DNA of 64,000 nucleotides from Melioribacter roseus (lineage in GTDB: Bacteria > Bacteroidota > Ignavibacteria > Ignavibacteriales > Melioribacteraceae): NCBI GenBank assembly GCA_020722065.1, contig DYLK01000001.1, positions 16,387 to 80,386 of the forward strand, written 5' to 3'. Position 1 is the stretch's first letter. Every line of letters starts with the position of its first letter. Below are positions 266-9,060 of this stretch, piece after piece. The notes under the pieces were generated by a model that saw nothing but the letters and a program-made list of their open reading frames with translations, did not search any database and was not told the origin of the DNA. The translations under genes and the position numbers were made by a program.

Positions 266-3200
266 TTATTTTTGTAATGCAAAAGTAAGAAGAAAATTTG
301 TTCCAATACCCTTTTGACTTTCAACTTTAATTGTAATATTGTTAATATCACAATATTGTTTAACAACACTTAAACCAAGTCCATTGCCATCAAATTTTCT
401 TGTGTAACCTTCATCTTCCTGAGTAAATGCTGTGAAAATGTGTGGTAAATAATCTGGATTCATTCCAATTCCAGTGTCTTTTATGCTAACTGTTACAAAG
501 TTATCTTTTTCTATAAAAGAGATTTTTATTTCACCTTTATTCGTATATTTTATTGCGTTATCAATTAAGTTTATAAAAATACTTCGTATAGAATAACTGT
601 CGGCTACAACTTTGTAATTTGAACTTGAATCATCAAATTGGAATAGCAAACCTTTATCAGCTGCTAGTGAATCAAATTCCATTTTTACACTATTAATTAA
701 TTCTACTAAATTGAGAGGCTGGTAATTTGGCGTAAAATCGCCAGCATCAAGCTCGGCTTTGTTGATTATTAAATCCATTGTTCTAATGATTCGGTTAGTC
801 GATCTTTCAATACTTGAAAATGAGAATTTCATATCTTCATCAAGTTGAAAATCAAGATTACTTCTTACTAAACCAATGTGGCTTAAAATAGAATTGAACG
901 GAGTTCTGATTTCATGCGACATTTGTGAAAGGAAATTTGCTTTAATTTGTTCAAGTTTGTTCAGTTTTTCTTTAGATTTAATTAAATTTTCAAAAGCAAT
1001 TTTTTCTTCGGTGATATTTCTTATTACAACTATAGAGCAAGGTTCATTTTTGTATTTTTGCCTTTTTACCCGAATTTCGGCATTTATCGTTTTTTGATAT
1101 TTATCAATAATTTCAATTTCATTAATATTAAAGCTACTTCCGGTGCTTGTTAAACGAGAAAGATATTTTTTATACTCTTTATCATTAATATTGAGAAATT
1201 CTTGAATATTTTTGCCTAAAATTTCGGGTCGTGAGTAGCCTAAAAGTTTCGAAGCACTATCGTTGAGTTCAACAATTTTAGAATTATTTAAATTTACAAT
1301 TAATATTGGATTATATGTTGCTTCAAATAAGTTGAAGTAATCATTTTTTGAATTCAAAAGCTCGGTATTTAGCTTTTCCTTTTCGCCAATTATTTGTTGA
1401 AGTTGCGTTACTTCTTGTTTTATTTTTTTTGTTCTATATCGATAAAATCCAAAAGTCCCAATTATAAAAAAAAGGAAAACGAAAATCTGGAATATCGCTG
1501 TTTGATAAAATGCTGGAACAATTTCAAATTCAAAAATTATTGGTTCGGATTCCACACCAAATCTATTTTTTGCCTTTATGTATAATTTATATTCATTTGG
1601 CGGTAACGAAACTAAGTTAATTTTGCTATTTTTTGAAAATTCAGAATATTCATTGTTAATTGGTTCTAATTTGTAAGCAAATTTTTCGGTAGAATAATTG
1701 TCAAAATTAAGTGCTGAAATTTCAAATGAAATATTATTTAGATAGTAGGGAAGTGAATATCCATCTGGCGTTAATTTATTTGTATTTTGTGGTAAATATT
1801 CTGTCTCTTGAATATTTTGATAATTGATAAAAACATCCTTTATAATTGGTTTATAACAAAAATGGTCAGCTCCTATTTTTGATTTTGAATATTTAATGAG
1901 CGCATTAACGCCACCAAACCAGATATTGCCTTTACTATCTTGGAGCGAAGAAAATTGGTTAAACTCTTCTCCTAAAATATTATCTGCTGGGTTGTATTCT
2001 GTGATGTCAAATATTTTTTCATTCTGATATTTTTTATAATCAAAAATTGCAAAGCCGCGTAAATTAAATATCCAAAGTTTTTGGGATTTATCTAAAAGTG
2101 CTGAAAAGGCTTGGCTTTGTGGTAATCCATCCTTAGAAGTTATTCGTTTTATCGCTTTTTTTACATCAGAGTTTTCATTTACATCGAAGAGTATTATTCC
2201 ATAATTAGAAGTAATTAAAATTAGAGTATTTTGTCCGTCAAATAGGGCATCAGTGTAAGTGAATTGAGAAAGAATGCTTGCAAATTTGAATTTAACTAAC
2301 TTATTATTTTCTATTTTTCTAATTGCTTTATTCTGTATTAACCACTTTACATTTGGTGAAGTCTGTACAATTTTTAATGACATATGCTCCTTAAGAGAAT
2401 GTTGCTTTTCGAACGCACTAAAATTCCCAGTACTTAAATTATAAACAAAAACTCCTTTTTCAGTTGTAGGAATCCAAATATTCCCTTTTTCTTCATAAAA
2501 CGACATTGGAGTACTAGTTTGAACATTAAATTTTTGAGTAATATTGATAATTTCATCGCCCGTTTTTACGTAAATATTATCAGTTGTCGAAAGCCAGAAA
2601 TTACTTTTGGAGTCTTCAAAAAATGTCCAAATAGTTGAATTTAATTTTCTTGACCAAGGAATTGGAGAAAATCTTTCCCCATTATATTGAAGGATACCTT
2701 GTCCGTCACTTCCAGCAATGATATTTTTACTTTTTGTTTCCAAAAGTTTGAAAATTTCTGCTTTTATACCATTTTTATTATGGAAATATGTAAAATCCAT
2801 ATTATCTATATGGTAAATTCCTTCGCCTAAAGTAGAAATCCAAAGAGAATTATTTCTATCGAAAAATAAATTGTATATAGAACTTTTTATTGGAGAAAAA
2901 TTCTTTCCCGAAATTTCACGTACAATTTTTTTATTGTTGTAAAAAATTATTTTAGTGTCTTGCTGAAAAACAACATTCCCTTCTTTATCAAATAAAATTG
3001 ATTGAAATCTATTTGTGGCTTTAAATTCATAACTATCGTATTGGAAATTTTCTTGAGTTCCTTTGAAAAGCCCAATATCAGAAAGTCCCCAAATAATTCC
3101 GTTGTGAGAAGAAATTGCATAAATAGTTTCAGAAATAATTTTTTTTATGGAATTATTTTTCCCGTTTAAATAAAATAGACCTTGGTTAGTGGCAAAATAG

Positions 3201-3739
3201 TAGTTGTTATTTTTGTCTGTAGTAATCGAATAAATGAATAAATTATTTAATATTTTATACTTTTTATTACGTTTTAAGATATTATTCTTAAATTCAAAAA
3301 TCCCGGTTCTCGTACCAATGAGTAATTTGCTTTTTCCTAATTCTAAAAAAGAGTAAACAACATTTTCAATCGAATCAATTTTTGGTAAAGTGAAATTTTT
3401 AAAATATTTTAGGTTTGAAATTGTTATAAAGCCATCTTTTTTCCCAACAAAAATAATAGAATCTGAAGTTGTGTAAAGTGAAACGACTTGTTCATTGCTT
3501 AGTAATGGATCATGAAAAATTGAAAATTCTTTCCCATTGTAATAACATAATCCATCAATTGTCCCAAAAAGCATAAATCCATTTTTTTCTTGAAGAATGG
3601 CAGTAGAAAAATCTGATAATAATCCATCGCCATAAGTATAATGCTCCATAATATAACTTTGAGCGAGTAAGTTAGTGCTTAAAAGAGTAAGTAATATTAG
3701 TTTTGTGAGTTGGATCATTGTTCTTTTCGTTTTATGCAT
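266..3739 (-). CDS. Two-component-regulator-propeller (Y_Y_Y) sensor histidine kinase with PAS, no receiver or HTH
   Basis: The track ORF is 266..3784. I prefer ATG 3739 (MHKTKRTMIQLTKLILLTLLSTNLLAQ, signal-like), because a TATTTTTG box (3761-3768, minus) lies between the two ATGs. About 700 aa is propeller-like repeat, followed by a Y_Y_Y-type segment (YKLEPINNEYSEF...NEYKLYIKAKN) and one TM helix (IFQIFVFLFFIIGTFGFY). Then come a PAS-like region, H-box SHEIRTPFNSI, and N/G boxes LIDNAIKYT, DTGIGM, GNGLGLS. Confidence 0.85.
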   Translation of the reverse strand: MHKTKRTMIQLTKLILLTLLSTNLLAQSYIMEHYTYGDGLLSDFSTAILQEKNGFMLFGTIDGLCYYNGKEFSIFHDPLLSNEQVVSLYTTSDSIIFVGKKDGFITISNLKYFKNFTLPKIDSIENVVYSFLELGKSKLLIGTRTGIFEFKNNILKRNKKYKILNNLFIYSITTDKNNNYYFATNQGLFYLNGKNNSIKKIISETIYAISSHNGIIWGLSDIGLFKGTQENFQYDSYEFKATNRFQSILFDKEGNVVFQQDTKIIFYNNKKIVREISGKNFSPIKSSIYNLFFDRNNSLWISTLGEGIYHIDNMDFTYFHNKNGIKAEIFKLLETKSKNIIAGSDGQGILQYNGERFSPIPWSRKLNSTIWTFFEDSKSNFWLSTTDNIYVKTGDEIINITQKFNVQTSTPMSFYEEKGNIWIPTTEKGVFVYNLSTGNFSAFEKQHSLKEHMSLKIVQTSPNVKWLIQNKAIRKIENNKLVKFKFASILSQFTYTDALFDGQNTLILITSNYGIILFDVNENSDVKKAIKRITSKDGLPQSQAFSALLDKSQKLWIFNLRGFAIFDYKKYQNEKIFDITEYNPADNILGEEFNQFSSLQDSKGNIWFGGVNALIKYSKSKIGADHFCYKPIIKDVFINYQNIQETEYLPQNTNKLTPDGYSLPYYLNNISFEISALNFDNYSTEKFAYKLEPINNEYSEFSKNSKINLVSLPPNEYKLYIKAKNRFGVESEPIIFEFEIVPAFYQTAIFQIFVFLFFIIGTFGFYRYRTKKIKQEVTQLQQIIGEKEKLNTELLNSKNDYFNLFEATYNPILIVNLNNSKIVELNDSASKLLGYSRPEILGKNIQEFLNINDKEYKKYLSRLTSTGSSFNINEIEIIDKYQKTINAEIRVKRQKYKNEPCSIVVIRNITEEKIAFENLIKSKEKLNKLEQIKANFLSQMSHEIRTPFNSILSHIGLVRSNLDFQLDEDMKFSFSSIERSTNRIIRTMDLIINKAELDAGDFTPNYQPLNLVELINSVKMEFDSLAADKGLLFQFDDSSSNYKVVADSYSIRSIFINLIDNAIKYTNKGEIKISFIEKDNFVTVSIKDTGIGMNPDYLPHIFTAFTQEDEGYTRKFDGNGLGLSVVKQYCDINNITIKVESQKGIGTNFLLTFALQK

Positions 3740-3833
3740 AATAGTTTTTTTAATTAGGCACAAAAATATATTGAAAATGAACAATATTGTACACTTATTT
3801 GAAAAATAAATTCTAAAATAGGTTAAATAATTG

Positions 3834-6800
3834 TTAAGAACCTTTTGAAACTAAATTTAACACGTCTTCGTAGCAAATTGTTGTTAAATCATCGTCCGAA
3901 AGATTGATTGATTCAGAAATTCGTTCTTCTTGAAAAGCAATAACTTCATAAAGCAAATTTTTCGCTGTTCGTGCATTCCCAAAATTTTTATTGCGATTTT
4001 CGTATGCTTTTTCAAAAATATCTAAGAATAATTGCAAAGCTCCTTCATCAAGTACATAACCAAAAGAATTTGCCATATTATAAGTTATTTCAAGTAATTC
4101 CCTTGGTTGATAATCTTCGAAATGGAAAAAATTCGTAAATCTTGACGTAAGTCCAGGATTTGAATTAATAAATTGCTTCATTTCATTTGTATAACCGGCG
4201 ACAATTACTGTAAATTCTCCTTTATAATCTTCCATTCGCTTAAGTAAAATATCAATTGCTTCTTGTCCAAAATCGCTTCCTCCTTTCGAAAGTGTGTAGG
4301 CTTCATCAATAAACAAAGTTCCGCCAATTGCTTCTTTAATAATTTTATCAGTTTTTATTGCTGTTTGACCTTGATATCCAGCTACTAATGAAGAACGATC
4401 ACATTCAACTAAATGACCTTTAGTTAAAATACCTAACTCTTTATATATTTTACTAACCAATCTTGCGATAGTTGTTTTTCCAGTCCCAGGATTTCCTGTG
4501 AAAACGCTGTGCAAATTTTTATCAACAATTCTTAAACCTCTTTGTTTTCTTACTTTTTCAACTTTCAAGCCTTTTATTAATCTATTTATTTCATTTTTTA
4601 CTGTTTGTAAACCAGTAAAAGAATTCAATTCTTCAAGATATTCTTCTAATTTCTCTTGGTCGCCAATTATTTCTATATTTTTTTTGACTTTTATCGTGGA
4701 AATTATTGGCAATACATCTTGTAAAACAATAATTTTTTCATTTTCGGGAATTAAATCACCAAATTCTGATAATCTTAAGAAATGCTGTTGTTGAATTCTC
4801 TCAACTAAAAATTTAACCATTCTTGCATTTCCAAATGTTTTATCTCTATTTCTATAAATTTCATTAAAATAAACTGATAATTTTTCTAAAACTGCTTCTT
4901 CAATAAGATAATTTTTATCTAAGTAATGCTTTTTTGTAATTTCAATTAGTTCTGTCGGTGAAAAGTCTTCGAAAATAAAAGATTTATTAAAATAAGATTT
5001 CAAATTAGCATTTGTTTCAAGAAAAGCGGACATCTCATCGGTATTCCCAGAAGCGAAAACAAGGAATTTCCCTTTATCACTTTCCAACCGTTTTACTAAA
5101 GTATCAATAGCTTCTTTCCCGAAGTCCTTTTCATCATTTAATTTGACGATGTTATTTGTCTGATTTATATATAAAACTCCACCAATTGCTTTGTCAATTA
5201 ACAGATTTGTCTTTTCAGCAGTTTGCCCAACAAAACCAGATACAAATGAATCTCGACTTGCTTCGATAAAATTCCCTTTTTCTAAAATTCCCAAAGCCGC
5301 AAAAATATTTGTAAGTATTTTTGCAACCGACCTTTTGCCCGTACCACTATTTCCCAGAAAAAGATAATTATCGTTGAATATTTCACTTAATTCATCCCCT
5401 TTATTTTTATAATATCTTGCCAACTTGATAGTTTTTGAAATATCATCTTTAATTGAAGTTAAAGCTACCAATTTTTCTAATTTTGTTAGTTCATTAGCAA
5501 GTTTATCTTCATCAATTGAAAGATCAAGTTTCTTTACAGAATTTTCTTCGAAAATTGATTCAAAAATTGGTTTAGTAAAAGTTGTTAGGATTTGTTTTAA
5601 TTCTTCATCATCAGTTGCAGAATCGAGTAAACTTGTTTCAGAGCTAATTTTCAATTTTGCTTTTTCGAAAATCTGTCGAACACTTCGCCCGTTTCCAAAA
5701 TTCTTGTCTCGGTTGCGGTACATTTCAGTGAATTTGTAGATTAAGTATTCTTTTGCTTCATCTGTAATCTCAAATTCTTCCTTTTTTGAAAAAAGTTGAA
5801 AGATTTTAAACATTTCATCTGGAAGATAATCTTCGAAAGTAAAATATCTTGAAAATCGAGATTTCAAACCAGGGTTTGATTCTAAAAATTTCTCCATATT
5901 ATCTGGATAACCAGCAACAATTACAACAAATTCATCCTTTTTATCTTCCATTTTTTTTAGAATTGTATCAATTGCTTCTTGCCCAAAATCATTTCCACCT
6001 TTCGAAAGGGAATAAGCTTCATCAATAAAAAGAACTCCACCCATCGCTTCTTCAATCTTCTTCTCGGTTTTTTGTGCAGTTTGCCCGATAAATTCTCCAA
6101 CTAAATCTGTTCTATCAACTTCCACAACATGACCATTTTTCAGAAGTCCCATCGAACGGAATAAATTTCCCATTAATCGTGCAACTGTTGTTTTTCCCGT
6201 GCCAGGATTTCCGACAAAGACAGAATGTAAAATAATATCGGAATTTGATTTTAAACCAAATTTTTGACGCTTTTTCTGGAAATTAATAAAATCAATCAAT
6301 TCCCGAATTCCTTTTTTAATAGATTCCAAGCCAATAAATTCATCAAGTTCGGCAATAAGTTGTTCAAGTGGAATTATTGGATTTTCAGCTATTTCTGATT
6401 TTTGTAAATCTTCAGATTTATTCAAATTAAGGCTTTTATTTTCAATTAAGTTGGTTTGTGGCTGTTCTGAATTATCTAACTTTGTATTTTTTGTAGGATT
6501 TTCAACACGGAATTGATTTTTATCGCCAATTATAAAGAAAGTCTGTGCAACTTTCATTTTCTCAAAATATAATTCAATTTTCCCTTGACCATTTGTTAAT
6601 TGAACAAAATCACCTTCAAAATCTTGCACAAACAAAACAGAATCCCAATCTTTTGAAACAAAAACTTCAAAGAAATTTTCAAAAATTACTCTATCATTTA
6701 CCAACCAATTGATTTTCCCATCAATATTTTGGTCTTCAATTCTAAAATTCGGGTTGGAAAAAATCACTTCGACAGAAAGTTGCTGCTTGCTAAGTTGTTT

Positions 6801-7763
6801 AATCTGTATAAGATACGGACCAGTTCCTTTTTGGTATTCATTTCTATTTACGAGTTGGAATTTATAAACTTCGCCATTGTCGTGTGGAAAATATTGTGAA
6901 TCAGTTCGGAAAGTAGGTCGTTCGTCAATCAATTTTGTTTGCTTTTTAGCATTTTCTTCAATAACCATCGACTTCGAAATTTTTTCATTTCGTTCTTTGT
7001 TATACTGAGTTAGTAAATTAAAAATCTTCTGAAATTTCTCATCATTTTCAAAATCATTACGAACTAATTCCGCTTTTCGAATAGCTGATACAAATTGATG
7101 CATATAAAAAAGAGATTCTATTTCAATAAAAGCTGCTTCAGAATGATATTTCTTTAATTCTTTTTGGGATTGAATTTTCTGCGCAATGATCAATGAAAAC
7201 CAATATTCTCTTAATTTTAAGGCTTTATGTGCATTTTCAATATATTGGTCAATATCTTTTTTGGGAATTTTAAATGTAGGGTGGTCAATTTCAAAAATCT
7301 GATTATAAAAGTTATATCGAATATTTAGTTCTGTATTATTTATCCCAGTTAGCGACATTGCAATTTCAATTTCGCGTAAAGCATCTTCATATTTTTTTAG
7401 ATTTGCGAGAGTTTTTGCTTTGTTTGAAGTTGTCCAGATGAGCAAAGTTTTTAGATTATCTTTTGCTTTATCAAAATATGTTAAAGCTCCTTCAAAAATA
7501 CTTACTCGTTGGAGCAAATAGCCGTAATAAAGATAAAATTCAGGAGAATTTGATTCTTGGATATTTAATGAATTTAACAAATCAATTGCTTTAATCGGGG
7601 AATTGTTCTCCAATAAAGCCCAAGAATAAGCAAGAATAGTCATATTATCATTTTGATTGAAAGTAATTATCTTTTCGGCAATTTGCAAAGCCAATCGATA
7701 GCGTCCATTCATCAAATGATTAAATACTTCTTTTAATAATTTATTGAATTCTTCAGCAGTCAA
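3834..7763 (-). CDS. TPR-like N-terminal domain protein with three tandem CbbX/SpoVK/EccA-type AAA+ ATPase modules
   Basis: 1309 aa. The first ~260 aa is helical and TPR-like, followed by an unassigned ~170-aa region and three AAA+ modules. Module 1 has [13 protein letters not shown] / [10 protein letters not shown]. Module 2 has [13 protein letters not shown] / [10 protein letters not shown] (degenerate). Module 3 has [13 protein letters not shown] / [10 protein letters not shown]. Each module also carries ..DFG.EAID.L.K.ME and NPGL.SRF, which are typical of the CbbX/SpoVK clade. Confidence 0.85.
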
Positions 7764-7822: not shown

Positions 7823-8575
7823 ATGAAATATTTAATTGAACTAATAAAAGAAAAAATGAACAAAATGAGAAAAAATTCGTCAGAAATGAGAAAATTTGAG
7901 AAAATTATGAAAGCGTTAAATTTTGTAAAATCAATAGTTTTATTTTTATTGATAGTTTTTGCCTCAACTTCTTGTAAATTAGTAGCTGTCCAGGGAAATG
8001 GGCAAATTTCTGAGATTGAGAAGAAAACATCAAATTTCAACAAAATAGATGCTTCAGGATCTTTTGATATTAATGTGAAATTAGGGAAGGAATCAAAAAT
8101 TAAAATAATAGCTGACAAAAATTTACAGAAATATATAACAACAAAAGTTGTAAATAACACATTATACCTTTCAACTAAAAAAAATTTATCACCAACAAAT
8201 GAAATTGAAATATTCTTAATTACTCCACAATTAGTCGCTGCAAATATTTCAGGTTCAAATGATTTGAAAATACACAATTATCAAGGACAAATTCTCAAAT
8301 TAGAAATTAGTGGTGCAGGTGCATTTTATGGAAGTGGAAAAGTAGATGTTTTTGATGTTGAAATAAGTGGAGCGGGCGAACTTAAAGCTGAAAAGTTAGT
8401 AACGAAAGTGTCTAAAATTCAAATCAGCGGCGCTGGAGAAGGAATAATAAATGTTAAAGACGAATTATATGCAGAAGTTTCAGGAGCTGGTGATTTGTTG
8501 TATATTGGTAACCCTAAAATAATTAAAACTGATATTTCAGGTGCTGGATCAATAAAAAAGAAAACAAAGGATTAG
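7823..8575 (+). CDS. DUF2807 / head-GIN-domain putative lipoprotein
   Basis: The track ORF is 250 aa. The real start is more likely ATG 7907 ([23 protein letters not shown], lipoprotein-like signal). The C-terminal half has five [IV]SGAG rungs about 20 aa apart (ISGAGAF, ISGAGEL, ISGAGEG, VSGAGDL, ISGAGSI), the DUF2807 beta-helix pattern. Confidence 0.7.
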
Positions 8576-8577
8576 TT

Positions 8578-9060
8578 ATGAAAAAATTAGTAGGAATTAT
8601 AATGGGCAGTGATTCAGATTTGCCTATTATGAATAAAGCCATTGAGGTTTTACAAGAATTTCAAATTGGATTTGAAGTGAAAATATTATCTGCACATAGA
8701 ACTCCAGATGAACATACAGATTACGCAAAAACAGCAGAACAACGTGGGCTGAAAGTGATTATTGCGGCAGCTGGTGGTGCAGCTCATTTACCTGGAGTTA
8801 CAGCTGCTCATACTATTTTGCCAATTATTGGTGTTCCTATCAATTCAAAATTAAATGGAATAGATTCGCTATTGTCAATTGTTCAAATGCCAAGTGGAAT
8901 TCCAGTTGCAACAGTTGCAGTTGATGGAGCGAAAAACTCAGCATTGTTAGCAATAGAAATCTTGGCATTATCTGATAAAAAAATTAGAGAAAAATTGATT
9001 ATTTATCGCGAAAATCAAAGAAAAGAATCTTATGCAAAAAATGAAAAGTTGAACAAATAA
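8578..9060 (+). CDS. purE: N5-carboxyaminoimidazole ribonucleotide mutase
   Basis: 160 aa. Motifs [26 protein letters not shown] and GVP...[12 protein letters not shown] are the canonical class I PurE signature. Confidence 0.95.

Follow-up and report, generated by a model that had tools for sequence, protein, structure and literature searches.

A conserved three-module CbbX-type AAA+ protein in Melioribacter roseus with a degenerate middle module and a predicted three-ring assembly

The window analysed here is a stretch of 64,000 nucleotides from Melioribacter roseus (assembly GCA_020722065.1, contig DYLK01000001.1, positions 16,387 to 80,386 of the forward strand), and the gene under study lies on its minus strand at 3834..7763. 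The encoded protein consists of four parts: a TPR superhelix, an Ig-like beta-sandwich, a disordered linker and three AAA+ modules of the CbbX/SpoVK/EccA type (referred to as M1, M2 and M3). Based on the pattern of catalytic motifs across the family, we propose that the three CbbX-type motors would touch modules of their own kind, giving a hexamer of three stacked rings that would remodel clients by threading them below the TPR/beta-sandwich head; we put the probability of this reading at roughly 0.55. The gene is a single-copy gene conserved in one order of Ignavibacteria-type Bacteroidota and not a unique fusion. As judged from its motifs, the catalytically dead middle module is a novelty of this genome.

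The gene was assigned to the minus strand because the plus-strand translation of the same interval is full of stops, which ruled out that reading, and the N-terminus of the 1309-residue protein lines up with the starts of 60 orthologues. The initial annotation had described a TPR-like head followed by three AAA+ modules at this position, a layout borne out by Pfam and NCBIfam; it did not mention that M2 is catalytically degenerate. The parts of the gene are listed below, where pLDDT is the predicted local distance difference test score.

3834..7763, minus strand: whole gene, 1309 codons plus stop, TTG start
6969..7763, minus strand: TPR-like all-alpha superhelix, aa 1-265, 13 helices (AlphaFold2, Foldseek, Pfam ANAPC3)
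6504..6911, minus strand: Ig-like beta-sandwich, aa 285-420 (AlphaFold2 strands, weak Foldseek similarity)
6366..6503, minus strand: disordered linker, aa 421-466 (pLDDT 29-36)
5559..6365, minus strand: AAA+ module M1, aa 467-735, fully intact (Pfam, NCBIfam, motifs)
4704..5507, minus strand: AAA+ module M2, aa 753-1020, catalytically degenerate (motif comparison)
3837..4649, minus strand: AAA+ module M3, aa 1039-1309, intact (Pfam, NCBIfam, motifs)

Module contacts and predicted assembly

In the rings of classical AAA+ proteins, the ATP site is completed by an arginine from the adjacent subunit. If M1, M2 and M3 lay in one planar ring closed by a second chain, the arginine of a site would come from a different module type, and if every module type formed a separate ring, site and arginine would come from the same type. 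Walker A, Walker B and the arginine equivalent to CbbX R194 were scored in 393 modules of 131 three-module family proteins. In CbbX, R194 is reported to be the arginine finger and Y114 the functional pore-loop residue (2011 CbbX structure paper). Modules with an intact ATP site had their own arginine in 376 cases and lacked it in none; modules with a dead site had it in one case and lacked it in 16. The association of a site with the arginine of the next or the previous module was much weaker than the association with its own. M1 was intact in all 131 family members scanned, and all three modules carried every catalytic motif and the pore-loop aromatic in 118 of them. Four proteins (P0252, P0260, P0270 and L009) combine a perfect M1 (Walker A, Walker B, arginine, sensor 2 and pore loop) with an M2 and an M3 that both lack the arginine; in a planar ring, the M1 site of these proteins would be left without a finger and the M1 arginine would face a dead site. 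Inactivation was repeated and independent, with at least four changes in M2 and at least five in M3 when placed on the M1 tree. Because a dead site is lost together with its own arginine, and because M1 stays intact beside modules without one, homotypic contacts and stacked hexameric rings are favoured.

In the proposed assembly, the protomers would join M1 to M1, M2 to M2 and M3 to M3, forming a hexamer of about 900 kDa with three stacked rings, a plan that would add a third tier to the design of the two-tier proteins p97, ClpB and NSF. The crown of TPR and beta-sandwich domains would recruit a dedicated client or adaptor, and ATP hydrolysis in the always intact M1 tier, here also in the M3 tier, would pull a segment of the client through the central pore. 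Such threading is suggested by the aromatic pore loops, which are conserved in M1, M2 and M3 alike. The M2 tier of this genome would act as a non-hydrolysing structural spacer, like D2 of NSF or D1 of Pex1/Pex6. Dead modules occur in several combinations: M3 alone in several lineages, M2 together with M3 in one sister family, and only M2 in this genome. A bolder claim, which we make tentatively and at somewhat less than even odds, is that the family represents the first AAA+ unfoldase with three tiers: 18 modules would be arranged in three rings under a TPR/beta-sandwich crown, in a hexamer of about 0.9 MDa whose tiers were repeatedly switched off and whose M1 is obligatory.

Several observations weigh against stacked rings. 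The AlphaFold2 monomer model of aa 458-1309 gave well-predicted modules (pLDDT 83), but their mutual arrangement was of low confidence, with a predicted template modelling score (pTM) of 0.38. Foldseek alignments of two modules at a time to Cdc48, p97 and Rix7 had root mean square deviations of 15-22 Å and indicated neither an arc nor a stack. Wholesale decay of a dead module, with tolerance of the impaired site in its neighbour, could produce the same co-loss pattern, and the co-loss counts are raw counts over related proteins that ignore kinship. That the arginine of the SRF motif acts in trans is presumed from classical AAA+ proteins and from the role reported for CbbX R194. Finally, no three-tier AAA+ machine was found described in our literature searches.

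Alternative explanations

The initial annotation had suggested that a dimer could close a six-module ring. In such a planar pseudo-hexamer, two protomers would lie head-to-tail (M1-M2-M3-M1'-M2'-M3'), with two opposite inactive positions in the present protein. The idea draws on the fact that three divides six, on the short inter-module linkers (about 8 disordered residues) and on six-module chains encoded in the same class (P0015, 1671 aa; L008, 1712 aa), which would be natural for dynein/midasin-like single-chain rings. Among the chains with an N-terminal Zn-ribbon (described further below), those of 5 and 6 modules have a dead first module that retains its SRF-type arginine, as expected if those chains form hetero-rings. 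In the three-module family, however, the dead site lacks its own arginine in 16 of 17 cases and the arginine of the neighbour is not lost, and in the four proteins named above a strongly conserved, intact M1 would sit between arginine-less modules with its own arginine facing a dead site. The five-module chain L007 likewise conflicts with a divisor-of-six rule, and the AlphaFold2 model, with its low pTM, shows no confident arc of modules. On this motif evidence, the dimeric ring appears to be the less likely assembly and stacked rings the better supported one; overall, we consider the planar arrangement unlikely. Another possibility is that M1 alone forms a working hexameric ring, with M2 and M3 serving at the periphery as AAA+-derived domains for regulation, spacing or client binding. 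This would account for M1 being the sole module intact in all members, for the repeated decay of M3, or of M2 and M3 (11 and 6 proteins, at least five and at least four events), and for two-module derivatives (L006 and P0303) that retain M1 next to a dead M3-type module. We nevertheless regard it as rather doubtful, since the 118 proteins with catalytic motifs and pore-loop aromatics in all modules argue for working ATPases, including M3 in the present protein.

The changes in M2 might also mark the onset of pseudogenisation in a genome that is reduced and AT-rich (2.38 Mb compared to 2.8-4.9 Mb in family relatives, 30% GC), in which the end branches of all three modules are 3-6 times those of the nearest kin. 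Gene decay is very improbable, though, as at 30% GC a stop-free frame of 1309 codons would be very unlikely in the absence of selection, no motif is missing from M1 or M3, M2 retains its fold signature, pore-loop phenylalanine and sensor-2 arginine, and other lineages have carried dead modules across long divergence. A role as an anti-phage defence component of the Iet or CBASS-TRIP13 AAA+ type was rejected and is scarcely credible: the weak partial matches to the PADLOC models of TRIP13 and IetA and to NCBIfam IteA span about 110-150 residues of generic AAA core (IteA scored 44.6 bits against a cut-off of 510), and the gene is single-copy, nearly universal in the family and syntenic with housekeeping genes (purE or groESL), outside variable islands.

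Clade and motifs of the AAA+ modules

Searches with hidden Markov models (HMMs) and Foldseek were run per domain and identified the AAA+ modules as CbbX-type, the head as TPR and the middle domain as a beta-sandwich without a Pfam match. Pfam detected three PF00004 AAA and three PF17866 AAA_lid_6 domains, and the NCBIfam models spore_V_K (TIGR02881), cbbX (TIGR02880) and T7SS_EccA (TIGR03922) matched three stretches each. The spore_V_K score of 707 bits is the sum of three modules, every one of which lies below the 423-bit cut-off; whole-protein NCBIfam scores exceed the curated cut-offs only because the modules add up. The best solved relatives were CbbX (3zuh and 3syk, E value 1e-58) followed by EccA1 (9lur), and each module of the AlphaFold2 model superposed on CbbX 3zuh/3syl with a template modelling score (TMt) of 0.70-0.75 at 39-40% identity. 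The modules belong to the SpoVK-EccA-like clade of classical AAA+ proteins (AAA core plus AAA_lid_6), and we could thereby confirm the CbbX/SpoVK/EccA assignment made initially. Within the protein, identity was 46% between M1 and M3, 35% between M1 and M2 and 38% between M2 and M3. The motifs are located as follows.

6186-6212, minus strand: M1 Walker A, GNPGTGKTT
6078-6098, minus strand: M1 pore loop, GEFIGQT
6012-6035, minus strand: M1 Walker B, VLFIDEAY
5853-5876, minus strand: M1 NPGLKSRF
5328-5354, minus strand: M2 Walker A, GNSGTGKRS (GNPGTGKTT in M1 and M3)
5220-5240, minus strand: M2 pore loop, SGFVGQT, aromatic kept
5154-5183, minus strand: M2 Walker B, LYINQTN (LFIDEAY in M1 and M3)
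5040-5054, minus strand: M2 sensor 1, ASGNT (AGY in M1 and M3)
4989-5012, minus strand: M2 block of the second region of homology, NANLKSYF (NPGL.SRF in M1 and M3)
4470-4496, minus strand: M3 Walker A, GNPGTGKTT
4362-4382, minus strand: M3 pore loop, AGYQGQT
4296-4319, minus strand: M3 Walker B, TLFIDEAY
4137-4160, minus strand: M3 NPGLTSRF

The motifs that had been quoted for M1 and M3, GNPGTGKTT[VI]ARL and LFIDEAY, are present as described. Alignment to CbbX 3syk placed F558, F844 and Y1130 at the position of the pore-loop residue Y114, and a tyrosine is nearly invariant at positions 558 and 1130 in the family. The equivalents of R194 are R636 in M1, Y924 in M2 and R1208 in M3. The sensor-1 region reads VAGYP in M1 and VAGYT in M3, and ASGNT in the M2 of this genome compared to AAGYT in the M2 of orthologues. 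The conserved asparagine is present in every module (N630, N918 and N1202), and the arginine equal to CbbX R194 sits at position +6 after it. The residue at +4 is Lys in M1, Lys in M2 and Thr in M3 (family consensus Lys, variable and Gln, respectively; Arg in CbbX). NPGLQSRF is also carried by free single-module relatives. The sensor-2 arginine (second arginine finger) is kept throughout, within FGNGR in M1 and FGNAR in both M2 and M3.

Degeneration of M2 in this genome

M2 has lost the Walker A threonine, the Walker B Asp-Glu pair, the GY signature of sensor 1 and the R194-equivalent arginine. It retains the fold signature, the pore-loop phenylalanine and the sensor-2 GNAR, and its HMM score is 331 compared to 345-412 in intact M2 modules. 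Walker A and Walker B of M2 were kept in all 60 aligned orthologues. The M2 of this genome is 46% identical to orthologous M2 modules, compared to a typical value of 61%, with M1 and M3 near the family norm, and its end branch in the module tree measures 0.84 against 0.10-0.20 in the nearest kin. In the M1 tree, the protein falls within a clade of 12 members (99% support), the remaining 11 of which are intact. Taken by its residues, M2 looks like a non-hydrolysing but structurally maintained module.

N-terminal head

An AlphaFold2 model of aa 1-470, based on 26 orthologue pieces, reached a mean pLDDT of 83.6. Residues 1-265 form the 13 helices listed above, mostly with a pLDDT above 90, and matched NatA Naa15, consensus TPR proteins, P58IPK, OGT and PilF in Foldseek; Pfam gave a weak ANAPC3/TPR match at aa 18-99 (E value 2e-6). 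The TPR-like head of the initial annotation is upheld by these results, and the superhelix is a probable docking surface for a client or adaptor.

The region of about residues 270-440 had been reported initially as matching nothing recognisable, and no family was found for it in the Pfam search; the AlphaFold2 model contains a confident beta-sandwich at aa 285-420, with about nine strands at a pLDDT of 82-97. Residues E332, N337, W353, F365, F378 and F410 are invariant in this domain. Its likeness to structures in the PDB is weak and limited to RhoGDI (1ft3_B, TMt 0.58) and UNC119 in Foldseek (E value about 6e-4, TMt 0.41-0.58). A lipid-binding function was not adopted from such weak matches, and the domain is described as an Ig-like sandwich. 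An HMM of the middle domain matched both N-terminal repeats of the two-module relative L004 (i-E values 3e-9 and 2e-8), and the beta-sandwich can for this reason be regarded as a recurrent N-terminal partner of these ATPases. In L004 (G028:C1, 871-aa frame), the first ~270 residues consist of two copies of the beta-domain, followed by two modules. The linker between the sandwich and M1 is poorly conserved, with 14-17% identity among orthologues.

Distribution of the family

Full-length homologues were collected with a word-indexed search as clusters at ≥95% coverage and 44-54% identity. More than 120 full-length orthologue clusters of 1277-1384 aa were found, originating from Melioribacteraceae, Ignavibacteria and metagenome-assembled genomes of Bacteroidota, and their names are limited to 'AAA family ATPase' or 'SpoVK/Ycf46/Vps4 family ... 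TPR repeat protein'. The family accounts for hundreds of database entries, and their generic names agree with the initial expectation of a family without functional annotation. Of the possibility that the architecture belongs to a common and functionally annotated family, the first half holds within one order and the second does not. Among 1.84 billion representatives, the head and middle region gave 31 clusters at E < 1e-10, with generic TPR proteins as weaker matches; the full-length proteins among these clusters measure 1256-1461 aa, the others being shorter or fragments. Among GTDB genomes, the head and middle region occurred in 16 of 17 sampled genomes of the taxonomic family to which the window belongs, and in the same order also in one genome of a second family and in three of five of a third. 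Overall, it was present in 20 of the 301 genomes sampled from the phylum, restricted to this order, and absent from the other 281.

The genome containing the window has 2.38 Mb in 69 contigs at 30% GC, is rated 100% complete and contains the present gene as its sole AAA_lid_6 gene. It is much smaller than the genomes of its family relatives (2.8-4.9 Mb) and more AT-rich, and its copies of M1, M2 and M3 all sit on long branches; it looks like the genome of a streamlined, fast-evolving lineage. One genome of a sister family carries a second copy of the head and middle region (G316:C1:2519546-2520913), a 1360-aa frame with an internal TGA, which may represent a pseudogene or a recoded codon.

Multi-module chains and age of the triplication

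Chains of 2, 3, 5 or 6 modules were carried by 23 of the 24 genomes of the class with AAA_lid_6 matches, so that the statement that proteins of this clade normally have one module fails in this class. As the three-module family shows, the CbbX-type clade also builds long multi-module chains. The full layout of TPR head, beta-sandwich and three modules is shared by L009 (G129:C1, 1287 aa, from a sister family in the same order), P0252, P0260 and P0270, in which M2 and M3 are heavily degenerate (HMM scores of 129-188 compared to ~375-380 for M1). L006 and P0303, a 773-aa protein, consist of the middle domain, M1 and a dead M3-type module. Another CbbX-type family found in this class has chains that start with a Zn-ribbon (CxxC...CxxC) followed by 3, 5 or 6 modules, with L005 (G101:C1, 833 aa), L007 (G121:C15, 1395 aa), L008 (G112:C139, 1712-aa frame) and P0015 (1671 aa) as examples. 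In the first module of these chains, Walker B reads D-N and a histidine replaces the sensor-2 arginine, and in the module tree two types take turns along the later modules, a pattern suggestive of pair duplication. The six-module Zn-ribbon chains may be candidates for a ring formed by a single chain.

The module tree comprised 102 modules, including M1, M2 and M3 of 20 orthologues, with support from the Shimodaira-Hasegawa-like approximate likelihood ratio test (SH-aLRT). Modules formed position-specific clades, with 98-99% support for the M1 and M3 groups and 80% for the M2 group, and the sister group of M3 consisted of free single-module proteins from cyanobacteria and others (98%). Because modules group by position across the family, M1, M2 and M3 were distinct before the family radiated. 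The tree thus indicates an ancient triplication in which each module has its own orthologous lineage, and the likeness of M1 and M3 appears to reflect slow evolution and no recent event. Intragenic triplication had been proposed from this likeness; the modules are indeed paralogous, and it is the notion of a recent event that the position-specific clades and the free sister proteins of M3 contradict.

Genomic neighbourhood

Eight loci were compared, namely the window and seven orthologue loci. The neighbours of the gene in the window are given first.

266..3784, minus strand: sensor kinase with Reg_prop, Y_Y_Y, PAS, HisKA and HATPase domains (Pfam)
7823..8575, plus strand: DUF2807 protein with lipoprotein-like signal, divergent neighbour (Pfam DUF2807, E value 2.5e-31)
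8578-9060, plus strand: purE, after the DUF2807 gene (conserved synteny)

The divergent pair of a DUF2807 gene and purE was found in six of the eight loci (the window and five of the seven orthologues). In the remaining two orthologue loci, groES-groEL precedes the gene in the same orientation, an adjacency that is no more than suggestive. The sensor kinase had initially been noted as a same-strand downstream neighbour, and the gap to it measures 49 bp; this adjacency is specific to the window, being found beside none of the seven orthologues, and the kinase is not counted as belonging to the system. Because the downstream genes vary among loci and the kinase is found in the window only, the gene appears to stand alone without a conserved partner. 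The initial annotation had seen no evident partner or substrate, and likewise no conserved operon partner, client or adaptor was found across the eight loci.

At 250 aa, the listed DUF2807 reading frame exceeds its orthologues (214-218 aa) by ~32-36 aa, and translation probably begins at an internal ATG instead, either M22 or M29. Such a start would yield a signal peptide with a lipobox-like FASTSC at its end and enlarge the divergent intergenic region to ~120-145 bp. At three orthologue loci (L011, L013 and L015, those of P0060, P0026 and P0039), a conserved convergent block lies downstream and encodes a short-chain dehydrogenase/reductase (SDR), a bacterial microcompartment (BMC) shell protein, an RnfC-like protein, a SpoIIE/PP2C phosphatase, an M64 peptidase and a phosphoribosyltransferase, followed by a ClpB/ClpC-type gene; this block is absent from the window.

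Comparison with known systems

To our knowledge, studies of what is a large clade of client-specific AAA+ chaperones have been confined to CbbX, SpoVK and EccA, all three of which are single-module homohexamers. CbbX (3syl, 3syk and 3zuh), the activase of red-type Rubisco, was the best match of every module in both sequence and fold, sharing Walker A, the LFIDEAY Walker B, the AGY sensor 1, the pore-loop aromatic, the arginine and the GNAR sensor 2. CbbX, however, has one module and acts as a homohexamer on Rubisco, whereas the protein described here has three modules and a TPR/beta-sandwich head, and the two also differ at the residue four positions after the conserved asparagine (see above). 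EccA (9lur), the ATPase of type VII secretion, likewise combines an N-terminal TPR domain with a CbbX-type AAA+ module, and its model TIGR03922 matched all three modules; yet EccA has one module and comes from another phylum, and the match is restricted to the AAA part of the model (positions 269-534), leaving the TPR region unmatched. SpoVK, which serves MurG as a chaperone in sporulation, falls in the same higher-order clade (PMC11513918) but is a single-module protein of sporulating Bacillota, modelled as a homohexamer, with a short beta-beta-beta-alpha N-terminal domain in place of the 466-aa head and three modules found here. RuBisCO_large had no match in the 100%-complete genome of the window (five control genomes matched), this genome encodes no WXG100 substrate, and the host is not one of the sporulating Bacillota. 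For these reasons, an identity as CbbX, EccA or SpoVK was rejected and the protein is not an orthologue of any of them, despite the model names. For annotation, the gene is better described as an intact, conserved remodeller with a non-catalytic middle module than as a Rubisco activase, a sporulation protein or a type VII ATPase.

Our literature searches for tandem or triple CbbX/SpoVK-type proteins returned nothing beyond the 2024 paper on the SpoVK clade (PMC11513918). According to that paper, members of the clade are specialised chaperones with narrow clients, whose variable N-terminal domains recruit the substrate and which have no protease partner (Delerue et al. 2024, PMC11513918). By analogy, the three-module family fits this picture of specialised chaperones.

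Several AAA+ modules on one polypeptide, some of them degenerate, are also found in dynein and midasin, which belong to another AAA+ clade and form a planar ring. The six-module Zn-ribbon relatives may follow a plan of this type. For the three-module family, the pattern of motifs speaks against a dynein/midasin-like completion of sites by neighbouring modules. Further parallels are p97/Cdc48, NSF, ClpB/Hsp104 and Pex1/Pex6, which likewise have tandem AAA+ modules in each chain and recruiting N-terminal domains, and in which one tier is often hydrolysis-dead and structural. The co-loss of site and arginine within the same module is the pattern predicted by the stacked homotypic rings of these type II unfoldases. 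They differ in having two tiers, with modules of other clades; for the three-module family, stacking is a prediction from sequence. The natural pattern of dead modules provides a sequence-only test of module contacts together with ready-made variants for biochemistry, and if the three-tier reading is true, it would also represent a natural mutant series for asking what extra tiers contribute to AAA+ machines. If the modules do stack, the family would extend the one- and two-tier plans of known AAA+ proteins to three tiers.

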